From Eledone cirrhosa (lineage: Eukaryota): a stretch of 64,000 nucleotides of DNA. Position 1 is the first letter of the stretch; every line of letters begins with the position of its first letter. The stretch covers positions 176,762,001-176,826,000 of the forward strand of contig OZ024743.1 of NCBI GenBank assembly GCA_964016885.1, read 5' to 3'. Positions 23,483 to 57,174 of the stretch are shown piece by piece. Under the pieces are notes generated by a model that saw only the letters and a program-made list of their open reading frames with translations, did no database searches and was not told where the DNA came from. The position numbers and the translations under genes were made by a program.

Positions 23483-24074
23483 CCACTCTCTTTATATATA
23501 TTCGCAACAACACAGCGCGCCATTTTTCATTCCTATATGCTTTCCCCTTCGCTGTGACCTTCTTTTTCTCTTCCCTTACTGCTATTCTCTTTCTCTCTCC
23601 TTCTCTCTCTTACTTTCATTCACCCCCCTCTGCTAGTCACCCTCTCTCGGCTAGCCTCTTCCTCACAGTTTCACTCACTCACTCTCTGCTACTCACCCTC
23701 TCTCTCACTTCCTCCATCGTCCCACACCGTGCGAAATTCTTTTCTCGTTTACTTTCGCATGATTGGGATGTGTCTCTCGTCTTCTCGTCAACATTCGCAA
23801 GTTCTTATGTTCAAATGAATCATTGACTTGATTTTATCATTTTTTCCTCTCTTTACGTTGCCTCACCATTTGTGTTTGTTTACCTGTCTCTCTTTCTCCA
23901 CCCAATTCTTTTTATCCCAATAACTTATTTTAGTTATTGTTCGCTCTAGCCTGAGGTATCTGGTCTTTAATGATGGCTAGTAGACCACTGGTGATGGATA
24001 GTCCTATTTCTAATTCTTCATTTTAATTTGTATATCAAACATGCAACAATACAGCACGCCATTTTTCATTCCTA

Positions 24075-24646
24075 TATATATACATACATGCACACATATA
24101 TATATGTACGTATGGATTCACCAAACATTTATTATAATGCTCGGTGTGTTTGTAAACAAACATCCCGTATTAATCCGTAGTATCTAGCAACCATCGTTGC
24201 TCATTTGTTCAAAACTGACAAAGGAACGCCGTACTAGTTTCAAGCTTATTAGCTATCGTCAGCAACGTATACCTTCCTGCCAGATGATTGAACGTCTGAA
24301 AGTATATACTTTCCTTATGCATATTAACGGCTGAGCAGCCTAATTTGCATATCGAGTGAGTTAATCGGCCGGGGTACCGAAAACGATAAACGGAAAAAAT
24401 TAAACGAAATTTCATTTCTCACTCTTAGTACGGCTGTTACTTAAATATAAGTATATATACGTACATACATATATGTATACAGACGTACAGTAGTATGTAT
24501 ATATATATACATGTATGTATATACATACATGTATATATACTACTGTACGTCTGTATACATATATGTATGTACGTATACATACTTATATTTAAGTAACAGC
24601 CGTACTAAGAGTGAGAAATGAAATTTCGTTTAATTTTTTCCGTTTA
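24075..24646 (-). mobile_element. ~445-bp hammerhead element (family H2), minus-strand monomer plus inverted arm
   Basis: 24075-24515 is homologous (reverse complement, permuted) to 56268-56917; ~24388-24515 is mirrored at ~24516-24646. Confidence 0.85.
24222..24277 (-). ncRNA. Minimal type-I hammerhead ribozyme
   Basis: Minus strand: cgttg-CTGACGA-tagctaataagctt-GAAA-ctag-TA-cggcg. Confidence 0.75.
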
Positions 24647-24657
24647 TATATATATAT

Positions 24658-27592
24658 CCCCATCCATCAATGCACAGAAATGGAAGATCCAATTCATTGA
24701 GGATTGGGTTGGTAACCATGCATTTCACACCCCCTTCTTCATACTTACTGAGACCCACCTTAACAACTCCCACTTGGAGGCCGAAGTAAGATTGAGGAAT
24801 TTCACAACCATCCGTGCGGATCGGGTTGGCAGAAGGAAGGGTGGAACTGCCATTTTTCTGCATGATTCCTTTACAGCAGATGGTAACAAAACATTCTCCA
24901 ATGGCTACTGTGAATCAGTCACTGTGCACAACAAAGCCAATGACCTGACATCAGTTGGGCTCTATAGGCCACCACAAACACACATAATCTGCTTCAATGA
25001 ATGCCTCAACAGTATTAAATGCTTTATTAAACAGCGCCATTCTAGCAACATACTTTTGATGGGAGACTTTAATCTATCCTGTGTCGATTGGTCTACATGT
25101 AGTTTGAAACCAGGCACCCCAACCTCTACCACTGACAAAGAAGTAGTCGAGTCACTTCTTGACTTCATGAATAAGATTTTCCTGTCCCAACTTGTCCTTG
25201 CACCAACAAGGTATCAGAAGAACATTCTGAATCTAGTGTTTAGTAACCACACTAACACTATCCATAATATTACAGTGGAAAAAACCCTTCTCTCAGACCA
25301 TGACATCGTTCTTTGTAACCTGAACTTCCACCAGCCGAAAGCTAATCCCAGGGTCCCCTTTCCAGCCCACCCATTTGATAACATGGATCTCTACAATGCC
25401 AACTGGGATGCAATTATGAACGAACTATCACATGTTGACTGGTCTTTTACACACACACACATTTTCACCAATATAAAAACATCTTGGCAGATCTTTGTAA
25501 ACACTGTCACAAATATATGTGTAAAACTCACCCCACCAAAACCTGTGAACAAAACCAAGTGCAGTATCCTCCAAAACAGAAAAACAATTATCAGAAAAAT
25601 AAAAAGAACAAACAAAAAAATTAACACACTAAAATACTGCCAACAGCAACACACATTCGATGGCTATCACCCTGCTTGAATCAAAAAAATATAACCTCCA
25701 GCAATGCATGATGACCATCATCAATAACCAGAGAACAACGGAACAGAGGTGGGCCATTGAGAAAATCAAACTCAACTCCAAAATGTTCTTTTCATTTGCT
25801 GAAAAACACAAGGTCTCCACTGTTGGCCCTCTAGTTGATGAAAATGGCACACTCCAAGATAATGCCAAAACCATGGGCGAGATACTGCAGAAACAATACT
25901 GCTCTGTTTTCAGCAACCCTGATATGGTTGATCTGGGCCGTATCAGTGATATTAACCCCCAACACACTATATCAGACATAACGTTTGGCGCCCCTGATGT
26001 CTTAGCGGCAATAAACGAAATTAAACACAATTCAGCAGTAGGCCCCGACAGGTTCCCTGCTTGTGTCCTGAAGGGGTGTCGACACAAACTTGCATCTCCT
26101 CTTGCTAATCTGTGGAGGAACTCACTGGACACTGGCTATATTCCTGAAAACTTTCTGTCCCAGTCCATTGTCCCAGTCTTAAAAAAAGGGAAATAAGTCC
26201 CTTGCAGTGAACTACCGTCCGATCTCACTTACCTCTCATATTATCAAGGTATTTGAGAGGGTGGTGAGATCACAAATAACCCACTTTCTTGAAAGCAACG
26301 GCCTACTGAACTCCAACCAACATTGGGTTCCGCAATGGAAGGGACTGCCTAACGCAGCTCCTGCATCACTTTGACGATGCTTTGAGAGTCTTGGGAGAGG
26401 GCTCTAAAACTAATGTCATCTGCCTTGATTTCAGCAAGGCCTTTGACAGGGTTGATCATAAGATTCTACTGAAAAATCTATCGAATATTGGTGTCTCTGG
26501 AAAGTTACTAAAGTGGATCAAATCTTTCCTGATTACTCGAAGAAGTAAAATCAAGCCCTGCCAAAGTCAGCAGTGGCGTCCCACAAGGCACTGTGTTGGG
26601 CCCACTTCTTTTCATCATCTACATTAATGACATTACTGACATCATCAAGCACAGAAACGTAAGAATCTTCGCAGATGATTCCAAGCTCCAAAGAGTCATC
26701 AATGAGGTGGGTGACCGGACTTGCCTTCAGTCAGACCTATGGGCAGAAAAGAATATGCTGTTGAATGAGGATAAGTTTGAATTAATCCACTTTGGAAAAA
26801 AGGATGCCCTGAAACTACCATACTCTCTTCCTTCGGGTGAAACTCTAGTGGCATCCAATAACATCAGAGAACTGGGAGTAATTGTGGACAACAACATAAG
26901 CTGGGACACTCATATAAACAGCAAAGTTGATATGGCCCGCAGAATGTGTTGCTGGATTCTCAGAACTTTCCAGTCGAGAGATATCCACACTATTATCCTT
27001 CTCTTCCCCACTTTTTCCCGACCCCAACTTGAATAATAGTGTCCACTCTGGTCTCCCCATACGAAACAAAGTATCATGAAAGTTGAAGCACCCCAAAGGT
27101 CAATTACAAAAAAGATAGATGGCATGACAGGCCTTGAGTATTGGAGTCGATTAGAAAAACTCAACCTTTATTCTATCCAGTGTCGCAGTGAGCGCTACAT
27201 TATCTGCATGATGTGGAAAATATTTGATCAGCTTTGTCCAAATGATTTTGGCATCACCTTTAATGTACACCCAAGGCTTGAGCCCCGTGCTATCATCCTA
27301 CGACAAAAGTCTCACTCGCATCTCATAAAACGGCACAATTATTTCACCTCAATTTCCCCCGCTCTCTTTAACATTACACCAAAACACATCAAAGCAGAAA
27401 CAGACCCCATCAAGTTCAAGAAGTCTTTGGACAAATTCCTTCAATAAATCCCGTATAAGCCTCCTACACCCAGATATAACTCCGTAAACAATAACTCTCT
27501 GCTCAAGTGGGCCATGGTGCCCAAACACTGATTTGTAAGACTTCGCCATGTGGTGCTATTAAGTTAGACATACTGGCCGAAACCTATCAAAG

Positions 27593-32610: not shown

Positions 32611-32624
32611 GTAAACAGAAATAA

Positions 32625-32773
32625 CAACACGATCGGTACAGTATATGAAAGGAATATACTAGGTTAACGCTTGAAATAGCAGGAAGAGGGTCTTAATGTT
32701 TCGGATGCTAGTCCTTCATCAGAAGAAAGAATGAGAAATAAGATAAGAATATGCATTAAATAATCGCCGTCCA
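32625..32773 (-). mobile_element. Short hammerhead-bearing repeat, family H3 (second copy on + strand at ~56085-56245)
   Basis: Minus strand tctt-CTGATGA-a-ggactagcatcc-GAAA-catt-aaga (32691-32726); flanks match the reverse complement of 56085-56245. Confidence 0.65.
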
Positions 32774-43984: not shown

Positions 43985-44406
43985 ACATTTTATAATTTGA
44001 AATATATATTAAATGTTTCCTTCTGACAAACGATTTCAGACGTCTCTGTTGAGCTCGCCTGTCTTCATGAAACCTTTGGTATATGTATATATGGTATATA
44101 TGGTATATACATATATATATATCCGAAATATATAGGGACAATTAAATCTCTCCCAAGGTAACTCTTTCTCGTGTTGTTATTTTTATTTTTATCCTTTACG
44201 CTCATTCCTTCATTCCTCTACACATTACAATCTTATACACGCCACGCATCTCAACGTACACCCACTTACATCTCTCTCTCGACCACCGGATCTTGTTACC
44301 CGGAGATTTACCCATCTGCATTGTCGAGGCTTCCAAACAACTTAAAGAAATTTACCTTATTATTCCACAATGCTTCAAGCAAATTTCAATACTCTCATAT
44401 ATATAT

Positions 44407-47400
44407 AGCGTTAAATTTTCCCTGCTGTATTAGCGATAAATTTTCGAGGGTTTCTCTTAGTAGCTTTTTCATGTCGTTAATATTATGATGTTCCCTGCTG
44501 TATTAGCGTTAAATTTTCCCTGCTGTATTAGCGATAAATTTTCGAGGGTTTCTCTTAGTAGCTTTTTCATGTCGTTAATATTATGATGTTCCCTGCTGTA
44601 TTAGCGTTAAATTTTCCCTGCTGTATTAGCGATAAATTTTCGAGGGTTTCTCTTAGTAGCTTTTTTTCATGACGTTATTATTGTTAATTTTACTGATGTA
44701 GTATTAACTTATTAACTTGGATATTTACCATGCGGTATTCTAATCCTATTGTATCTCTCTCAGTTATTTACCATGCGACCCTCAGTTCCCCCCCCCTCTA
44801 TGCACTTCTTTAAGGCTTACTACCCTGTCTTTAACCTAATTCATTTTCAATCTGAAAATATTGAAGAGATAAGACACTTTGCCATTCTTCTCTGCTAAAA
44901 TGTACCACTAGAGCTGATTCAAATTTTCCCAGCCAGCCATCCACCTAATCTACGAAGGTATTTTAGCCTACATATTGTCGTTAATATTATGATGTTCCCT
45001 GCTGTATTAGCGTTAAATTTTCCCTGCTGTATTAGCGATAAATTTTCGAGGGTTTCTCTTAGTAGCTTTTTCATGTCGTTAATATTATGATGTTCCCTGC
45101 TGTATTAGCGTTAAATTTTCCCTGCTGTATTAGCGATAAATTTTCGAGGGTTTCTCTTAGTAGCTTTTTCATGTCGTTAATATTATGATGTTCCCTGCTG
45201 TATTAGCGTTAAATTTTCCCTGCTGTATTAGCGATAAATTTTCGAGGGTTTCTCTTAGTAGCTTTTTTTCATGACGTTATTATTGTTAATTTTACTGATG
45301 TAGTATTAACTTATTAACTTGGATATTTACCATGCGGTATTCTAATCCTATTGTATCTCTCTCAGTTATTTACCATGCGACCCTCAGTTCCTCCCCCCCC
45401 CCTCTATGCACTTCTTTAAGGCTTACTACCCTGTCTTTAACCTAATTCATTCAATCTGAAAATATTGAAGAGATAAGACACTTTGCCATTCTTCTCTGCT
45501 AAAATGTACCACTAGAGCTGATTCAAATTTTCCCAGCCAGCCATCCACCTAATCTACGAAGGTATTTTAGCCTACATATTGTCGTTAATATTATGATGTT
45601 CCCTGCTGTATTAACGTTAAATTTTCCCTGCTGTATTAGCGATAAATTTTCGAGGGTTTCTCTTAGTAGCTTTTTCATGTCGTTAATATTATGATGTTCC
45701 CTGCTGTATTAGCGTTAAATTTTCCCTGCTGTATTAGCGATAAATTTTCGAGGGTTTCTCTTAGTAGCTTTTTCATGTCGTTAATATTATGATGTTCCCT
45801 GCTGTATTAGCGTTAAATTTTCCCTGCTGTATTAGCGATAAATTTTCGAGGGTTTCTCTTAGTAGCTTTTTCATGTCGTTAATATTATGATGTTCCCTGC
45901 TGTATTAGCGTTAAATTTTCCCTGCTGTATTAGCGATAAATTTTCGAGGGTTTCTCTTATTAGCTTTTTCATGTCGTTAATATTATGATGTTCCCTGCTG
46001 TATTAGCGTTAAATTTTCCCTGCTGTATTAGCGATAAATTTTCGAGGGTTTCTCTTAGTAGCTTTTTCATGTCGTTAATATTATGATGTTCCCTGCTGTA
46101 TTAGCGTTAAATTTTCCCTGCTGTATTAGCGATAAATTTTCGAGGGTTTCTCTTAGTAGCTTTTTCATGTCGTTAATATTATGATGTTCCCTGCTGTATT
46201 AGCGTTAAATTTTCCCTGCTGTATTAGCGATAAATTTTCGAGGGTTTCTCTTAGTAGCTTTTTTTCATGACGTTATTATTGTTAATTTTACTGATGTAGT
46301 ATTAACTTATTAACTTGGATATTTACCATGCGGTATTCTAATCCTATTGTATCTCTCTCAGTTATTTACCATGCGACCCTCAGTTCCTCCCCCCCCCCTC
46401 TATGCACTTCTTTAAGGCTTACTACCCTGTCTTTAACCTAATTGATTCAATCTGAAAATATTGAAGAGATAAGACACTTTGCCATTCTTCTCAGCTAAAA
46501 TGTACCACTAGAGCTGATTCAAATTTTCCCACCCAGCCATCCACCTAATCTACGAAGGTATTTTAGCCTACATATTGTCGTTAATATTATGATGTTCCCT
46601 GCTGTATTAGCGTTAAATTTTCCCTGCTGTATTAGCGATAAATTTTCGAGGGTTTCTCTTAGTAGCTTTCTCATGTCGTTAATATTATGATGTTCCCTGC
46701 TGTATTAGCGTTAAATTTTCCCTGCTGTATTAGCGATAAATTTTCGAGGGTTTCTCTTAGTAGCTTTTTCATGTCGTTAATATTATGATGTTCCCTGCTG
46801 TATTAGCGTTAAATTTTCCCTGCTGTATTAGCGATAAATTTTCGAGGGTTTCTCTTAGTAGCTTTTTCATGTCGTTAATATTATGATGTTCCCTGCTGTA
46901 TTAGCGTTAAATTTTCCCTGCTGTATTAGCGATAAATTTTCGAGGGTTTCTCTTAGTAGCTTTTTTTCATGACGTTATTATTGTTAATTTTACTGATGTA
47001 GTATTAACTTATTAACTTGGATATTTACCATGCGGTATTCTAATCCTATTGTATCTCTCTCAGTTATTTACCATGCGACCCTCAGTTCCTCCCCCCCCCC
47101 CTCTATGCACTTCTTTAAGGCTTACTACCCTGTCTTTAACCTAATTCATTCAATCTGAAAATATTGAAGAGATAAGACACTTTGCCATTCTTCTCTGCTA
47201 AAATGTACCACTAGAGCTGATTCAAATTTTCCCAGCCAGCCATCCACCTAATCTACGAAGGTATTTTAGCCTACATATTGTCGTTAATATTATGATGTTC
47301 CCTGCTGTATTAGCGTTAAATTTTCCCTGCTGTATTAGCGATAAATTTTCGAGGGTTTCTCTTAGTAGCTTTTTCATGTCGTTAATATTATGATGTTCCC

Positions 47401-49144
47401 TGCTGTATTAGCGTTAAATTTTCCCTGCTGTATTAGCGATAAATTTTCGAGGGTTTCTCTTAGTAGCTTTTTCATGTCGTTAATATTATGATGTTCCCTG
47501 CTGTATTAGCGTTAAATTTTCCCTGCTGTATTAGCGATAAATTTTCGAGGGTTTCTCTTAGTAGCTTTTTTTCATGACGTTATTATTGTTAATTTTACTG
47601 ATGTAGTATTAACTTATTAACTTGGATATTTACCATGCGGTATTCTAATCCTATTGTATCTCTCTCAGTTATTTACCATGCGACCCTCAGTTCCTCCCCC
47701 CCCCCTCTATGCACTTCTTTAAGGCTTACTACCCTGTCTTTAACCTAATTCATTCAATCTGAAAATATTGAAGAGATAAGACACTTTGCCATTCTTCTCT
47801 GCTAAAATGTACCACTAGAGCTGATTCAAATTTTCCCAGCCAGCCATCCACCTAATCTACGAAGGTATTTTAGCCTACATATTGTCGTTAATATTATGAT
47901 GTTCCCTGCTGTATTAGCGTTAAATTTTCCCTGCTGTATTAGCGATAAATTTTCGAGGGTTTCTCTTAGTAGCTTTTTCATGTCGTTAATATTATGATGT
48001 TCCCTGCTGTATTAGCGTTAAATTTTCCCTGCTGTATTAGCGATAAATTTTCGAGGGTTTCTCTTAGTAGCTTTTTCATGTCGTTAATATTATGATGTTC
48101 CCTGCTGTATTAGCGTTAAATTTTCCCTGCTGTATTAGCGATAAATTTTCGAGGGTTTCTCTTAGTAGCTTTTTTTCATGACGTTATTATTGTTAATTTT
48201 ACTGATGTAGTATTAACTTATTAACTTGGATATTTACCATGCGGTATTCTAATCCTATTGTATCTCTCTCAGTTATTTACCATGCGACCCTCAGTTCCTC
48301 CCCCCCCCCTCTATGCACTTCTTTAAGGCTTACTACCCTGTCTTTAACCTAATTCATTCAATCTGAAAATATTGAAGAGATAAGACACTTTGCCATTCTT
48401 CTCTGCTAAAATGTACCACTAGAGCTGATTCAAATTTTCCCAGCCAGCCATCCACCTAATCTACGAAGGTATTTTAGCCTACATATTGTCGTTAATATTA
48501 TGATGTTCCCTGCTGTATTAGCGTTAAATTTTCCCTGCTGTATTAGCGATAAATTTTCGAGGGTTTCTCTTAGTAGCTTTTTCATGTCGTTAATATTATG
48601 ATGTTCCCTGCTGTATTAGCGTTAAATTTTCCCTGCTGTATTAGCGATAAATTTTCGAGGGTTTCTCTTAGTAGCTTTTTCATGTCGTTAATATTATGAT
48701 GTTCCCTGCTGTATTAGCGTTAAATTTTCCCTGCTGTATTAGCGATAAATTTTCGAGGGTTTCTCTTAGTAGCTTTTTCATGTCGTTAATATTATGATGT
48801 TCCCTGCTGTATTAGCGTTAAATTTTCCCTGCTGTATTAGCGATAAATTTTCGAGGGTTTCTCTTAGTAGCTTTTTCATGTCGTTAATATTATGATGTTC
48901 CCTGCTGTATTAGCGTTAAATTTTCCCTGCTGTATTAGCGATAAATTTTCGAGGGTTTCTCTTAGTAGCTTTTTCATGTCGTTAATATTATGATGTTCCC
49001 TGCTGTATTAGCGTTAAATTTTCCCTGCTGTATTAGCGATAAATTTTCGAGGGTTTCTCTTAGTAGCTTTTTTCATGACGTTATTATTGTTAATTTTACT
49101 GATGTAGTATTAACTTGGATATTTACCATGCGACCCTCAGTTCC
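44407..49144. repeat. Higher-order tandem array: runs of a 98-bp monomer (~2.7, 3, 7, 4, 3, 3, 6 copies) separated by six ~307-bp blocks
   Basis: Monomer starts at 44473, 44571 and onward; blocks start at ~44671, 45273, 46269, 46971, 47576 and 48180, with a shortened block at 49077. Confidence 0.95.
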
Positions 49145-52100
49145 TACCTCACAATTTCCCTCCCCCCCACCCCCACACACCACCATAGTCTATTCGACCA
49201 ATCAAACCTAGCATGCCATTTCCACTGCTGCTGCTGCTACTACCTGCCTAACTAACTCTCTCCTCCTCTGGCGCATCCCAACACACCCTGCCATTACCCC
49301 ACCACCACTGTCCTTCTAGCCCTCAATTTTCCCACCGTTAGGGATGGATGAGCTGGGAATACACGAGCAACTCTGAATCAATAGATGAAATATGAATCTG
49401 CGAGCTACCAAGCACCCACGTGAAGCGCCAACCCAGAGACCCTCCCCTACGAGTGTCGACAAATGCCCAAAACTCCGAGTTGGTACCATCAATGTAGGCT
49501 CAATGAAAGGAAGAGCAGGAGAAATCGTAGAAATGCTAGAGCGAAAGGAAGTTGATGTATGCTGTGTGCAAGAGACTAGATGGAGAGGAGGGTCTGCTAG
49601 AGTCCTTGTAGGAAAAAGCCAGTGCTACAAATTTTTCTGGGTGGGAAATGACGATGGGATGGGTGGTGTAGGTATACTATTAGCTGACAAGTGGGTAGAT
49701 AAAGTAATCTCAGTGTACAGGGTAAATGCAAGAATCATTAAACTCAGACTAGTCCTGAATAAGACAATTACCACAATAATATCAGCTTACGCACCCCAAT
49801 CGGGGCTGCCAGACGAACTTAAGGATAGGTTTTACGAGTCCCTAATACACACTACTGCTCTAACAGACGACAAGGACTTCCTAATCATTGCAGGAGATTT
49901 TAACGGACACGTAGGTAAACACTGCGACGGCTTCAATAGAGTACATGGAGGCCATGGAGTTGGCACAAGGAATGAGGAAGGATTCAGACTTCTAGAATTC
50001 TGCGACGCCAATGACATGTCGATATGTAACACAAACTTTAAAAAACCCGACAACCACCTGATCACCTATAGATCAGGGGAGCACTCTAGTCAGTTAGATT
50101 TTATCCTCATCAGAGGACGTGACAGATGGACGGTCGTAAACACAAAAGCCTTCCCTAGTGAGGAATGTACATCCCAACATAGCTTAGTTGTCAGCGACCT
50201 CACGGTCAGAACTAGACGAGCCCTGAAACAGAGGCCAACCTGGAGAAGAAAGATCTGGAAGCTGAAAGTCCCCTCAACCAGTAACAGATTTAAAGATATT
50301 TTACTCAACGCCTACGACAGTAAAGAAGAACAGATAGAGACATTTAACGTAGAAGAGAACTGGGAGTTCCTAAAAAATAACTTACTAGAGGCGACGGATG
50401 AGGTTTGTGGCTGGAGTAAGACCTCAAGCAGGAGGAGAGTGACTTGGTGGTGGAACAATAAGGTAGATGAAGCAGTCAAGGCCAAGAGACAGGCATGGAA
50501 AGAATGGAAGAACGGGGGGAGCAGGGTACATTACATAGAGACCAAGAGGGAAGCTAGGCGACAAGTATACTTAGCTAGGAGGGAAGCAGAGGATAGAAAA
50601 TTCAAGCATGTTTTACAACGTGAGGACCAGAAACAGGAGGTATTCAAGATTGCGAGGCAGTGTGTCAGAGATAGTTGTGATGTCATTGGAGAGAAGTGTA
50701 TCCGGAATGATAAAGGTGAGCTTGCCCTCACAAGTGCTGAGAAGAAAGATGCATGGAAGAGTCATTATGATAGATTACTAAATGAGGAGAATGCATGGGA
50801 AGAAGAGACCCTACCCCACGTAGACCCTATAGAGGGACCAGCAGTACAAGTCAGCGGCAGCGTAGTAAGTAAGGCAATCAGAGATATGAAGATAGGGAAG
50901 GCAACCGGTCCATCGGGTATAGCTGCCGAGATGCTGAAGGCATCTGGGTCTGTAGGTCACACTATAACCACACGTATCGTTAACCAGGTAATACTAGAGG
51001 GGGCCATACCAAAAGATTGGTGCAGTAGCATCATTGTCAACTGCTACAAAGGTAAAGGCGATGCACTAGATAGAGGAAACTATAGAGGTATAAAGTTGAT
51101 GGACCAGGTCATGAAAGTAACAGAAAGAGTTATAGCACAGCTGATTAGGGACCGGGTGAATATAGACGAGATGCAATTTGGGTTTGTCCCAGGGAAAGGC
51201 ACCACTGATGCGCTCTTCCTTGTGAGGCAATTACAGGAAAAGTACCTAGCTAAAAGTAAGCCACTCTACTTGGCATTTGTCGACCTTGAGAAAGCCTTTG
51301 ACAGAGTTCCACGTGCAGTAATCTGGTGGGCTCTTAGAAAACTAGGAGTAGATGAATGGCTTGTGAAAGCGGTACAAGCCATGTATAGGGGAGCAGTCAG
51401 CAAAGTTAGGATTGGCAATGAGTATAGCGAGGAATTTAGCGTACAGGTTGGGGTCCACCAGGGCTCTGTTCTTAGCCCTCTCCTGTTCATCATAGTCCTG
51501 CAGGCAATAACGGAGGAGTTTAAGACCGGATGCCCATGGGAACTCCTGTATGCTGATGACCTCGCACTCATAGCTGAATCTATGGTAGAACTAGAGAATA
51601 AATTCCAAACCTGGAAGCAGGGACTAGAGAGAAAGGGCCTCAAAGTCAACATGACAAAGACTAAGGTCCTTATAAGTAGACGAGAAAACAGAACCCAGAT
51701 CCCCTCAGGGAAATGGCCTTGCTCAGTATGTAGGAAAGGTGTAGGTAGGAACTCCATTCTTTGCCCCAAATGCAAACAATGGGTACACAAGAGATGTAGC
51801 GGGATCTCAGGAAGCTTAATTAAGAATGTAGGATTCACATGCAGCAGCTGTGCTGAAACAGCAAGCAAACAGCCACAGGAAACAAGCACCACCAATCTCT
51901 GGGAGGGCCCTGTAGAAACAGTAGACAGCTTCTGCTACCTAGGTGACCGAATTAGCAACGGAGGTGGGTGCTCAGAAAGTACAATAACTAGGGTAAGAAC
52001 GGGATGGAAGAAGTTTAGGGAACTACTACCACTGCTAGCTGCAAAAGGCTTCTCCCTCAGAATGAAAGGCAGACAGTATGATGCGTGTATCCGAACAGCG

Positions 52101-52809
52101 ATGTTGCATGGTAGTGAGACCTGGGCGCTGAAGGTGGAAGACTTACGTAGATTAGAGAGAAACGAAGCCTGCATGCTCCGATGGATGTGTAACAGTAATA
52201 TACGTGAACGACAAAGCATAAATGAATTGAGAGAGAGACTGAGCATAAGAGGAATCAAATGCTGCGTGCAGGAGAGGCGGTTACGCTGGTATGGACATGT
52301 GATGCGTATGAAGGATGACAGCTGCATAAAAAGGTGCAGAGCACTAGAAGTTGATGGAAACCGCGGAGTGGGGAGACCCAAGATGACTTGGGATGAGGTG
52401 ATAAAAGCCGACCTTACCCAACTACACCTCTCAAAGTCAATGACACACGACCGTGACTTCTGGCGTCACGCAGTAATACAGGGTACCCGACCTCCCATGG
52501 GTACATGCTGAAGCATATAAACGATATGCCCCCCCCCCACCGCAAGGTGGTCATGGAGGTGCCACGGCAAAAAAGCACCCAGCCCACACTGTAAAGTGGA
52601 CGTGTAGGCGCCACGAAAAAGCACCCAGCACTCACTGTAAATGAGGTTGGTGTTAGGAAGGGCATCCAGCTGTAGAAATCAAGCCAGATCAGTTCCTGTA
52701 TGAGCAAGGCATGGTCAGCCGACCAGACACTGCCCACAACAGGACAACCCGTCTAACCCATGCTAGCGTGGAAGAACGGACGTAAAACGGTGATGATGAT
52801 GATGATGAT
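49145..52809 (+). mobile_element. Full-length RTE LINE (leader, ORF, 3'UTR, (GAT)n tail)
   Basis: ORF above; 3'UTR shared with the other copies and with SINE tails; ends ggtgatgatgatgatgatga. The 5' boundary is uncertain. Confidence 0.9.
49392..52511 (+). CDS. Intact RTE-clade LINE polyprotein: APE endonuclease + reverse transcriptase with a PHD-type C4HC3 finger
   Basis: 1039-aa open frame; GTINV, CVQETRW, SAYAPQ, AGDFNGHVG, LDFILI (APE); QFGF, DLEKAFDRV, GVHQGSVLSPLLF, LYADDL (RT); RRLRWYGHVMRM C-terminus. Confidence 0.95.
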   Translation: MNLRATKHPREAPTQRPSPTSVDKCPKLRVGTINVGSMKGRAGEIVEMLERKEVDVCCVQETRWRGGSARVLVGKSQCYKFFWVGNDDGMGGVGILLADKWVDKVISVYRVNARIIKLRLVLNKTITTIISAYAPQSGLPDELKDRFYESLIHTTALTDDKDFLIIAGDFNGHVGKHCDGFNRVHGGHGVGTRNEEGFRLLEFCDANDMSICNTNFKKPDNHLITYRSGEHSSQLDFILIRGRDRWTVVNTKAFPSEECTSQHSLVVSDLTVRTRRALKQRPTWRRKIWKLKVPSTSNRFKDILLNAYDSKEEQIETFNVEENWEFLKNNLLEATDEVCGWSKTSSRRRVTWWWNNKVDEAVKAKRQAWKEWKNGGSRVHYIETKREARRQVYLARREAEDRKFKHVLQREDQKQEVFKIARQCVRDSCDVIGEKCIRNDKGELALTSAEKKDAWKSHYDRLLNEENAWEEETLPHVDPIEGPAVQVSGSVVSKAIRDMKIGKATGPSGIAAEMLKASGSVGHTITTRIVNQVILEGAIPKDWCSSIIVNCYKGKGDALDRGNYRGIKLMDQVMKVTERVIAQLIRDRVNIDEMQFGFVPGKGTTDALFLVRQLQEKYLAKSKPLYLAFVDLEKAFDRVPRAVIWWALRKLGVDEWLVKAVQAMYRGAVSKVRIGNEYSEEFSVQVGVHQGSVLSPLLFIIVLQAITEEFKTGCPWELLYADDLALIAESMVELENKFQTWKQGLERKGLKVNMTKTKVLISRRENRTQIPSGKWPCSVCRKGVGRNSILCPKCKQWVHKRCSGISGSLIKNVGFTCSSCAETASKQPQETSTTNLWEGPVETVDSFCYLGDRISNGGGCSESTITRVRTGWKKFRELLPLLAAKGFSLRMKGRQYDACIRTAMLHGSETWALKVEDLRRLERNEACMLRWMCNSNIRERQSINELRERLSIRGIKCCVQERRLRWYGHVMRMKDDSCIKRCRALEVDGNRGVGRPKMTWDEVIKADLTQLHLSKSMTHDRDFWRHAVIQGTRPPMGTC

Positions 52810-55887: not shown

Positions 55888-55990
55888 AGGTGAGGACCGA
55901 CAGCTGAGCTCTTGCCGTTTTAACAGCTAGTTCCGAACAACCCAGAACTAGCTGTTGAAATGGCAAGAGCTCAGCTGTCAGGTCTTAACT
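55888..55990. mobile_element. Diverged H1 fold-back
   Basis: gacagctgagctcttgccgttttaacagctagtt pairs with aactagctgttgaaatggcaagagctcagctgtc. Confidence 0.7.
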
Positions 55991-56267
55991 AGTTTTAAAC
56001 TGGTTCTATCCTCATATATATGCAAAAGATGTCAACAATGAATGGATCTATTATTTTTATCTAAAGACATTTAGATAATAATTCCATCCCGCCCGTCCGT
56101 TTAATCTATTTATTTCTCATTCTTTCTTCTGATAAAGGACTAGCGTCCGAAACATTAAGACCCTCTTCCTGCTATATCAAGCGTTAACCTAATATATACC
56201 TTCCATATACTGTACTGATTGTGTTGTTATTTCTGTTTACCTTTTACATACATATATATATATATAT

Positions 56268-56915
56268 TGTTTACAAACAAACAAACCGAACATTATAATA
56301 AATGTTTGGTAAACTGATACGTACATATATATATGTGTGCATGTATGTATATATATAAATACTACTGTACGTCTGTATACATATATGTATGTACGTATAC
56401 ATACATACTTACATATCAGCCGTATCAGCCGTATTAAGAGTGAGAAATTAAATTTGGTTTCATTCTTTTTCATTTATCGTTTTCGGTGCGCCCGGCCGAC
56501 TAACTCACTCGATATGCAAATTAGGCTGCTCAGCCGTTAATATGCATAAGGAAAGTATATACTTTCAGATGTTCAATCATCTGGCAGGAAGGTATACGAT
56601 GCTGACGATAGCTAATAAGCTTGAAACTAGTACATCCTTCCTGTATCAGTGTTGAACAAAAGGGCGACGATGGTTGCCTGAACACTGTACGGTGTAATTC
56701 GGGCTGTTTGTTTGTTTACAAACAAACAAACCGAACATTATAATAAATGTTCGGTAAACCGATACGTACATATATATATGTGTGCATGTATGTATATATA
56801 TATATACATACTACTGTACGTCTGTATACATATATGTATGTACGTATACATATATACTTACATTTAAGTATCAGCCATACTAAGAGTGAGAAATGAAATT
56901 TCGTTTCATTCTTTT

Positions 56916-56917
<2 letters not shown>
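56268..56917 (+). mobile_element. Family H2 hammerhead element, ~1.5 tandem monomers (period 445 bp)
   Basis: tgtttacaaacaaacaaaccgaacattataataaatg occurs at 56268 and 56713. Confidence 0.85.
56587..56641 (+). ncRNA. Minimal type-I hammerhead ribozyme
   Basis: ggaagg-tatac-gatg-CTGACGA-tagctaataagctt-GAAA-ctag-TA-catc-cttcc. Confidence 0.8.
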
Positions 56918-56963
<46 letters not shown>

Positions 56964-57174
56964 ATATATATATACATACACACATACATAACTGGCTTCC
57001 ACACAGTTTCTGTCGACCAATTTTCACTCACAATGCACTGTTCAATCAAATTTTATGCACTTAAATGCCAGTACTTCCCTCTATCTAAGCAAAAATAACG
57101 ATGCAAATCTATGAGATTGCCCATTCTGCAGAAAACCTGTGTAACTTTATTTATTGTTCACACCAGTAAATTGT

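Follow-up and report, generated by a model that had tools for sequence, protein, structure and literature searches.

Non-LTR retrozymes are short non-coding tandem units that bear type I hammerhead ribozymes, and their circular RNAs have been shown in coral, mussel and axolotl (PMC7229834). Penelope-like elements (PLEs) have been called a strong candidate for copying them, still as a hypothesis (PMC7229834), and retrozymes have been proposed to be non-autonomous PLE derivatives through a mechanism described as yet to be elucidated (bioRxiv 10.64898/2026.07.22.740005). PLEs themselves are marked by 5′ truncation, partial tandems, an inverted 5′ copy, a tail at one end and a bias towards (TA)n (PMC8557442, PMC3846280), the tail being carried by one of the inverted pseudo-LTRs (pLTRs) (PMC3846280, PMC8557442). 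The protein of an anole PLE, predicted to act as a dimer, cuts and extends both strands in vitro; reverse transcription (RT) begins at two positions within the RNA, which bound the tail, and the main substrate is reported to be uncleaved RNA, with no reads ending at the cut (PMC11167929). For retrozymes, the available parts of two accounts (PMC7229834; bioRxiv 10.64898/2026.07.22.740005) give no insertion ends, fixed 3′ ends, tails or inverted arms.

The H2 repeat of Eledone cirrhosa is a new family that fits an established class, the non-LTR retrozymes of animals. Like the described members (PMC7229834; bioRxiv 10.64898/2026.07.22.740005), it has a type I hammerhead, a non-coding unit of low GC content, copies ranging from monomers to multimers, high self-pairing and PLEs in the same genome; its palindromic 1-bp stem III is similar to that of axolotl HHR_Amex1, and its stem II starts on a U.U much as in HHR_Amex2. 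The H2 units lie at or above the 150–450 bp quoted for invertebrate retrozymes, and the copies are mostly dispersed and one-core, unlike those of animal non-LTR retrozymes. Circles have been shown for the known animal retrozymes and are predicted for H2; the haplotype variety of its subfamily C is reminiscent of the heterogeneity in mussel retrozyme circles. Plant LTR retrozymes carry a type III hammerhead in LTRs that flank a unique internal region, in contrast to H2, with its type I hammerhead and no internal region.

With endonuclease-positive PLEs (PMC8557442, PMC3846280, PMC11167929), H2 shares 5′ truncation, partial tandems, an inverted arm, a one-end tail, (TA)n targeting and two internal 3′ ends downstream of the hammerhead, here called E1 and E2; unlike them, it has no open reading frame (ORF) and its unit closes on itself. 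The tail measures about 56 nt in H2 and 30–40 nt in these PLEs, and its presence at one end, worded as ‘often' or ‘optionally' in the PLE literature, holds for 49 of 49 classifiable H2 cases. The anole PLE shows no strand difference in start site in vitro (PMC11167929), whereas inverted H2 pairs split between E1 and E2. The non-autonomous elements of Chlamys such as MRC1 (PMC8557442) are, like H2, non-coding PLE parasites with pLTRs that form head-to-tail multimers; they belong, however, to a clade without canonical hammerheads and generally match their autonomous partner at the 3′ end, a match that was not found for H2 in 11 PLE 3′ regions. The main text of an octopus repeat annotation (PMC13282606) mentions neither hammerhead nor retrozyme. 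Neither the H2 family nor a one-tail rule backed by counts is described in the main texts of the literature searched, with Repbase and Dfam outside that search.

The window (the whole 64,000-nt stretch of DNA analysed) contains an H2 insertion at 56 kb and a second copy at 24 kb (Table 1). Since the first 210 bases of the 56-kb insertion recur 445 bases later, it comprises about 1.46 units with a single ribozyme, in agreement with the roughly 1.5 head-to-tail monomers of the original prediction, which had also correctly recognized the GTTT/AAAC hairpin, the ACTAGT palindrome and, at 24 kb, a copy with an inverted arm. The insertion contains no ATG-initiated frame longer than 68 codons. The position of the predicted cut and the hammerhead numbering follow the general hammerhead rules.

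Table 1. Features of the two H2 copies, in window coordinates.
Feature	Position	Strand	Description
H2 retrozyme insertion	56268..56917	+	~1.46 units, 5′-truncated; 3′ end at the downstream fixed site E2 (tail present)
Direct repeat, copy one	56268..56477	+	91% identity to 56713-56923, period 445
Type I hammerhead motif	56596..56638	+	stem I 56596-56601/56633-56638; core CTGACGA 56602-56608
Hammerhead stem II	56610-56613/56618-56621		AGCT/AGCT, 4 bp, U.U at its base; GAAA 56623-56626
Hammerhead 3′ part		+	palindromic loop CTAG, then TA; GUA triplet
Predicted self-cleavage site	56632/56633	+	also the predicted circle junction; from hammerhead rules applied to the sequence
Extended stem I arm closing the ribozyme	56571..56656	+	three further helices
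GTTT/AAAC hairpin	56706..56731	+	region hypervariable between young-subfamily insertions
Long TA-rich hairpin	56760..56850	+	directly 5′ of E1; TA tract length differs from unit to unit
Upstream fixed 3′ end site E1	56860..56866	+	read through in the 56-kb copy; putative first RT start
Tail between E1 and E2	56861..56917	+	~56 nt; contains GAAATGAAA/TTTCATT hairpin
(TA)n target tract	56918..56978	.	directly 3′ of the insertion; a further TA stretch at 56250-56267
Second copy, main arm	24073..24527	-	different subfamily; core start 24262, predicted cut 24232/24231
Inverted arm of the 24-kb copy	~24500..24647	+	end at E2 ahead of (TA)n

The main arm of the 24-kb copy, which runs from 24527 down to 24073, shares 86% identity with the 56-kb copy over 477 columns. 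It halts about 170 nt past its predicted cut, before E1, and is an exception to the two-end rule described below. As each window copy has one ribozyme, neither could yield unit-length RNA by self-cleavage alone. A LINE-type endonuclease frame (24615–25676, plus strand) starts directly after the inverted arm. Elsewhere in the window, a second LINE-type frame (49389–52508, plus strand) is uninterrupted over 1040 codons, with endonuclease, RT and PHD-finger matches, and a tandem array at 44406–49088 comprises about 47 copies of a 98-bp unit.

The hammerhead claimed in the original prediction is present. The MFE fold of 56575–56650 has hammerhead topology (z −2.4; 5 of 200 shuffles equally good). 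Rfam gives no match in the whole window at the gathering threshold, and at E≤5 it gives 14 weak matches on 56400–56800, none of them to a hammerhead. Over 40 aligned copies, 98.5% of cells in the named structure pair, a value reached by 0 of 500 shuffles that is not to be read as a probability, the aligned rows being related; the helices of the extended stem I arm are paired in 97.5–98.3% of cells. The covariation is real but thin, because only 2 of 32 pairs vary on both sides, one in stem I and one in a downstream hairpin. The stem I pair is G.U in 19 copies, A-U in 10, U.G in 9, C-G in 1 and G-C in 1, all 40 rows being paired, and the covarying stem I that had been predicted holds for this one family-level pair; the other stem I difference between the window copies is a one-sided U.G present in 1 of 40 rows. 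A C.C mismatch (56597/56637) lies within stem I of the 56-kb copy, and the 1-bp stem III and the U.U (or C.A) at the base of stem II are features expected to weaken the ribozyme. The subfamilies share the catalytic nucleotides and differ at N7, loop II and H17. A compensatory change from U.U to C-G at the stem II base was considered and rejected, C-G being a rare variant. The unit RNA is predicted to be strongly folded (z −8.4), and in models folded as circles 64–71% of it is paired and the hammerhead is predicted to be accessible, its stem II appearing in 6 of the 7 models. At 1698–1760 on the plus strand lies a third hammerhead-like motif, which has a long stem II and relatives in two other loci (L184, L197).

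The family is large. The 31-nt core has 10,046 exact matches in the 3.0-Gb genome and the 24-nt post-cleavage motif has 28,116, the reversed-pattern controls giving 0 in both cases; a variant core adds 942 matches (loci L209–L236), and nearly all of the 100 listed from this subfamily combine C.A at the stem II base with a GUU cleavage triplet. At least four subfamilies are visible. Unit length ranges from 418 to 516 bp among arrays, so that the 445-bp monomer of the original prediction stands for the 56-kb copy and not for the family; unit GC content is 35–38%, and there is no long ORF. Most core-bearing arms (79 of 88) are dispersed one-core insertions, 9 of 88 have 2–5 exact cores, and arrays reach 7 units per arm. 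In subfamily C, a hairpin region at unit positions +85 to +130 is hypervariable (L237, L131, L125, L154, L151, L155), each insertion having its own haplotype while the stems are, by eye, apparently kept. The variable positions of H2 recur in three sequencing runs (one sample, contigs).

Insertion ends were mapped on the first 100 listed core matches of contig C1, taken as an unbiased sample and corresponding to 80 loci after removal of 6 overlapping ones. The 3′ ends of the 88 core-bearing arms fall at E1 in 37 cases, at E2 in 40 and elsewhere in 11, E1 lying 205–225 nt and E2 260–282 nt past the cut (about 215 and 270). Together, the two intervals span 10% of the unit and hold 77 of the 88 ends. 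A larger anchor-based set of 164 loci (34 overlapping loci and 20 short-flank plus 20 long-flank GIY-YIG loci excluded) gives 99 E1, 111 E2 and 5 other ends among 215 terminal arms, a count that misses arms ending before the anchor, such as the main arm at 24 kb. A TA tract follows 187 of the 210 E1/E2 arms in this set; target-site duplications are unreadable inside (TA)n. The 5′ ends are scattered and variable. Mapping of starts and ends thus contradicts the ‘permuted' copies of the original prediction: with 3′ ends fixed at E1/E2 and 5′ ends that are truncations, the copies are not free circular permutations, and random permutation was rejected on account of the two fixed sites far from the cut. 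Fixed 3′ ends combined with 5′ truncation are the insertion signature of Penelope-like elements. Neither this signature, nor the (TA)n target, nor the meaning of the inverted arm figured in the original prediction.

The two sites are used in a strictly paired manner. Among 50 inverted insertions, 49 combine E1 with E2, one combines E2 with another end, and none is E1/E1 or E2/E2. All 49 classifiable pairs are therefore E1+E2, against 50% expected if the arms were independent (p 2e-15); one locus (L165) gives four of the 49, apparently two duplicated insertions. All short inverted E2 stubs that were found stand in front of main arms ending at E1 (10 of 10 rows, made up of 8 true cases and 2 false matches). 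This rule is a strict form of the one-sided PLE tail. E1 and E2 sit at AU-rich motifs and their junction letters vary by a few bases, which suggests priming through short AU-rich matches to the TA target.

The reading that we favour, with a probability of about 0.6, is that H2 is a non-LTR retrozyme mobilised in trans, via circles, by a PLE reverse transcriptase with GIY-YIG endonuclease. Arrays with at least two ribozymes would be transcribed, and the transcripts would self-cleave and be ligated into unit circles. The PLE protein would then nick both strands of a (TA)n tract, and each DNA end would prime RT internally: E1 would serve one of them and E2, some 56 nt farther downstream, the other. 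Short stretches of AU-rich pairing with the TA primer would probably help. Both cDNAs would run 5′-ward across the cleavage junction, over a fraction of a turn to several turns, and their joining at the truncated ends would produce a main arm and an inverted arm, only one of which has the tail. The 11 of 88 arms, and the 24-kb main arm, that end outside E1/E2 count against this circle and PLE model.

What kind of RNA served as template can be addressed at the cut. In copies bearing the post-cleavage motif, 98 of 100 run upstream through the cut with a junction that neither gains nor loses bases, and only 2 of the 100 begin close to it, no more than a few bases away; no pile-up of 5′ ends at the cut is seen among these 100. 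A cleaved linear monomer primed at E1 or E2 would allow at most 215–290 nt and would leave a 5′ pile-up at the cut, which disagrees with this read-through. The second-turn stop rate at the cut is 7 of 26, versus 16–27% at neighbouring landmarks (first-turn rates being biased by the choice of loci), and 61 of 215 arms attain the same landmark one unit upstream, some exceeding three turns. Of the 9 multi-unit insertions in subfamily C, which is young, 8 have a single insertion-specific haplotype throughout their units, and in both arms where present; the exception is L118, whose arms differ by 5%. Over all subfamilies, median divergence is 1.8% between tandem neighbours, 4.5% between opposite arms and 11.8% between different loci, and in only 10 of 50 arm pairs is the opposite arm as close a match as the best copy elsewhere. 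Read-through and homogeneity favour a continuous RNA as template, probably circular; on these sequence patterns, we would put circular over linear at about two to one. The rolling RT of a circular RNA that had been proposed thus retains its continuous template (98 of 100 copies reading through, arms of up to 7 units, homogeneous young arrays) and loses its argument from permutation.

The most serious competitor, which we consider unlikely, retains the same Penelope-type insertion but takes as template an uncleaved, linear RNA transcribed from a tandem array in the genome. The hammerhead would then be slow or dispensable, and long arrays would derive from long source arrays or from later duplication. 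This competitor predicts read-through of the cut equally well, possible sources exist in the 9 of 88 arms with two or more exact cores, and the weak stems of the ribozyme agree with it, as does the finding that insertion of the anole PLE is unaffected by hammerhead mutants (PMC11167929). The alternating unit variants of two arrays (ABAB in L061; also L237) are another point in its favour, and imply either DNA-level duplication or dimer circles. However, many haplotypes are fixed, each throughout its own array of up to 7 units and in both arms, which calls for repeated single-unit bottlenecks such as a monomer circle would give; 5′ truncation would erode arrays unless there were rolling or template jumps; and the catalytic core is kept in four subfamilies that differ at N7, loop II and H17.

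As for the enzyme, the Eledone genome is rich in PLE-type enzymes: a GIY-YIG search left 150 of 150 scored matches above the cut-off, out of 10,596 candidates. PLEs that bear CxxC are known as Neptune-type. One locus (L187, G000:C1:145869000-145877000, minus strand) is a PLE of pLTR-ORF-pLTR layout with a 938-codon frame and RT and GIY-YIG matches; copies of its family end 3′ in (TA)n at either of two sites, separated by about 70 nt, and a pattern search of the locus found no canonical hammerhead. Comparison of three parts of the H2 unit with 11 PLE 3′ regions (33 comparisons) gave no significant link, the two best, equalled by 0 of 200 and 1 of 200 shuffles, being brief and AT-rich; the small similarities around TTTCGTTTCAT were discounted as a partner link, as they are not significant over 33 tests. 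The lack of a significant partner link, the weak ribozyme, the ABAB arrays, the closeness of only 10 of 50 arm pairs, the divergent arms of L118, the four pairs that come from L165 and the use of uncleaved RNA by the anole PLE were all counted against the circle and PLE model.

The H2 unit could instead be the pLTR of an autonomous Penelope-like element whose 5′-truncated ends are the observed copies, which appears very unlikely. Such an element would leave the same ends, tail, inversion and TA signature, and the adjacent H1 family is such a pLTR. Long H2 arms, however, wrap back into the H2 unit with no unique internal region, unlike the H1 family, which in L244 continues upstream into GIY-YIG-like sequence. 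The 188 5′ flanks of H2 have no non-unit sequence in common, and their 9 pairwise matches comprise 8 unrelated repeats and 1 residual unit sequence; an ORF with RT and GIY-YIG between pLTRs is absent from the H2 copies examined, and the short frames of the window insertion also speak against a coding parent. Among 40 GIY-YIG loci sampled from the 150 scored of 10,596 candidates, none has the H2 unit as pLTR, a sample in which a rare full-length parent could be missed, and two carry it as a separate insertion. Copies that are LTRs of a longer coding element, one of the outcomes named in the original prediction as refuting it, were not seen among these loci.

H1 is a hammerhead-bearing 3′ end of a Penelope-like element, present in the window at 56024–56247 (plus strand) and about 32620–32730 (minus strand). 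It has 2,889 exact cores and a fixed end about 85–90 nt past its cut, and the GIY-YIG-like coding sequence in L244 lies about 400 bp upstream. The 56.1-kb copy, whose core is changed to CTGATAA, holds the H2 insertion within its TA tail. A near-perfect palindromic element (CCGACAGCTGAGCTC...GAGCTCAGCTGTC) at 55897–55983 recurs beside TA tracts in L002, L006, L008, L068, L160, L196 and L257, and is possibly another non-autonomous Penelope-type element.

Copying of self-cleaved linear monomers with repeated template jumps, or satellite-like unequal crossing-over, in either case without a circle, is scarcely credible. Template jumps have been proposed for PLEs (PMC3846280), and L061, L237 and L165 could plausibly reflect DNA-level duplication. 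Against this reading stand the 98 clean junctions, with only 2 of 100 starts near the cut, the copies that are mostly dispersed and one-core (79 of 88 arms) and the inverted arms that share haplotypes.

Returning to a circular template copied by a PLE enzyme, a tentative extension, which we hold at somewhat less than even odds, is that a PLE RT-endonuclease dimer bound to one circular RNA primes both sites, one for each strand of the (TA)n tract, and rolls out both cDNAs. If so, paired priming would always produce the one-sided tail, and H2 would be direct genomic evidence that circles of animal retrozymes serve as Penelope templates.

The element itself is not surprising, because its class is already known. 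H2 ties retrozymes to PLEs through insertion anatomy instead of co-occurrence and names two candidate priming sites. Its rule of one arm per site is one that any model of Penelope transposition must explain, and its tens of thousands of copies, together with the private haplotypes of a young subfamily, make the choice between circular and linear templates testable.
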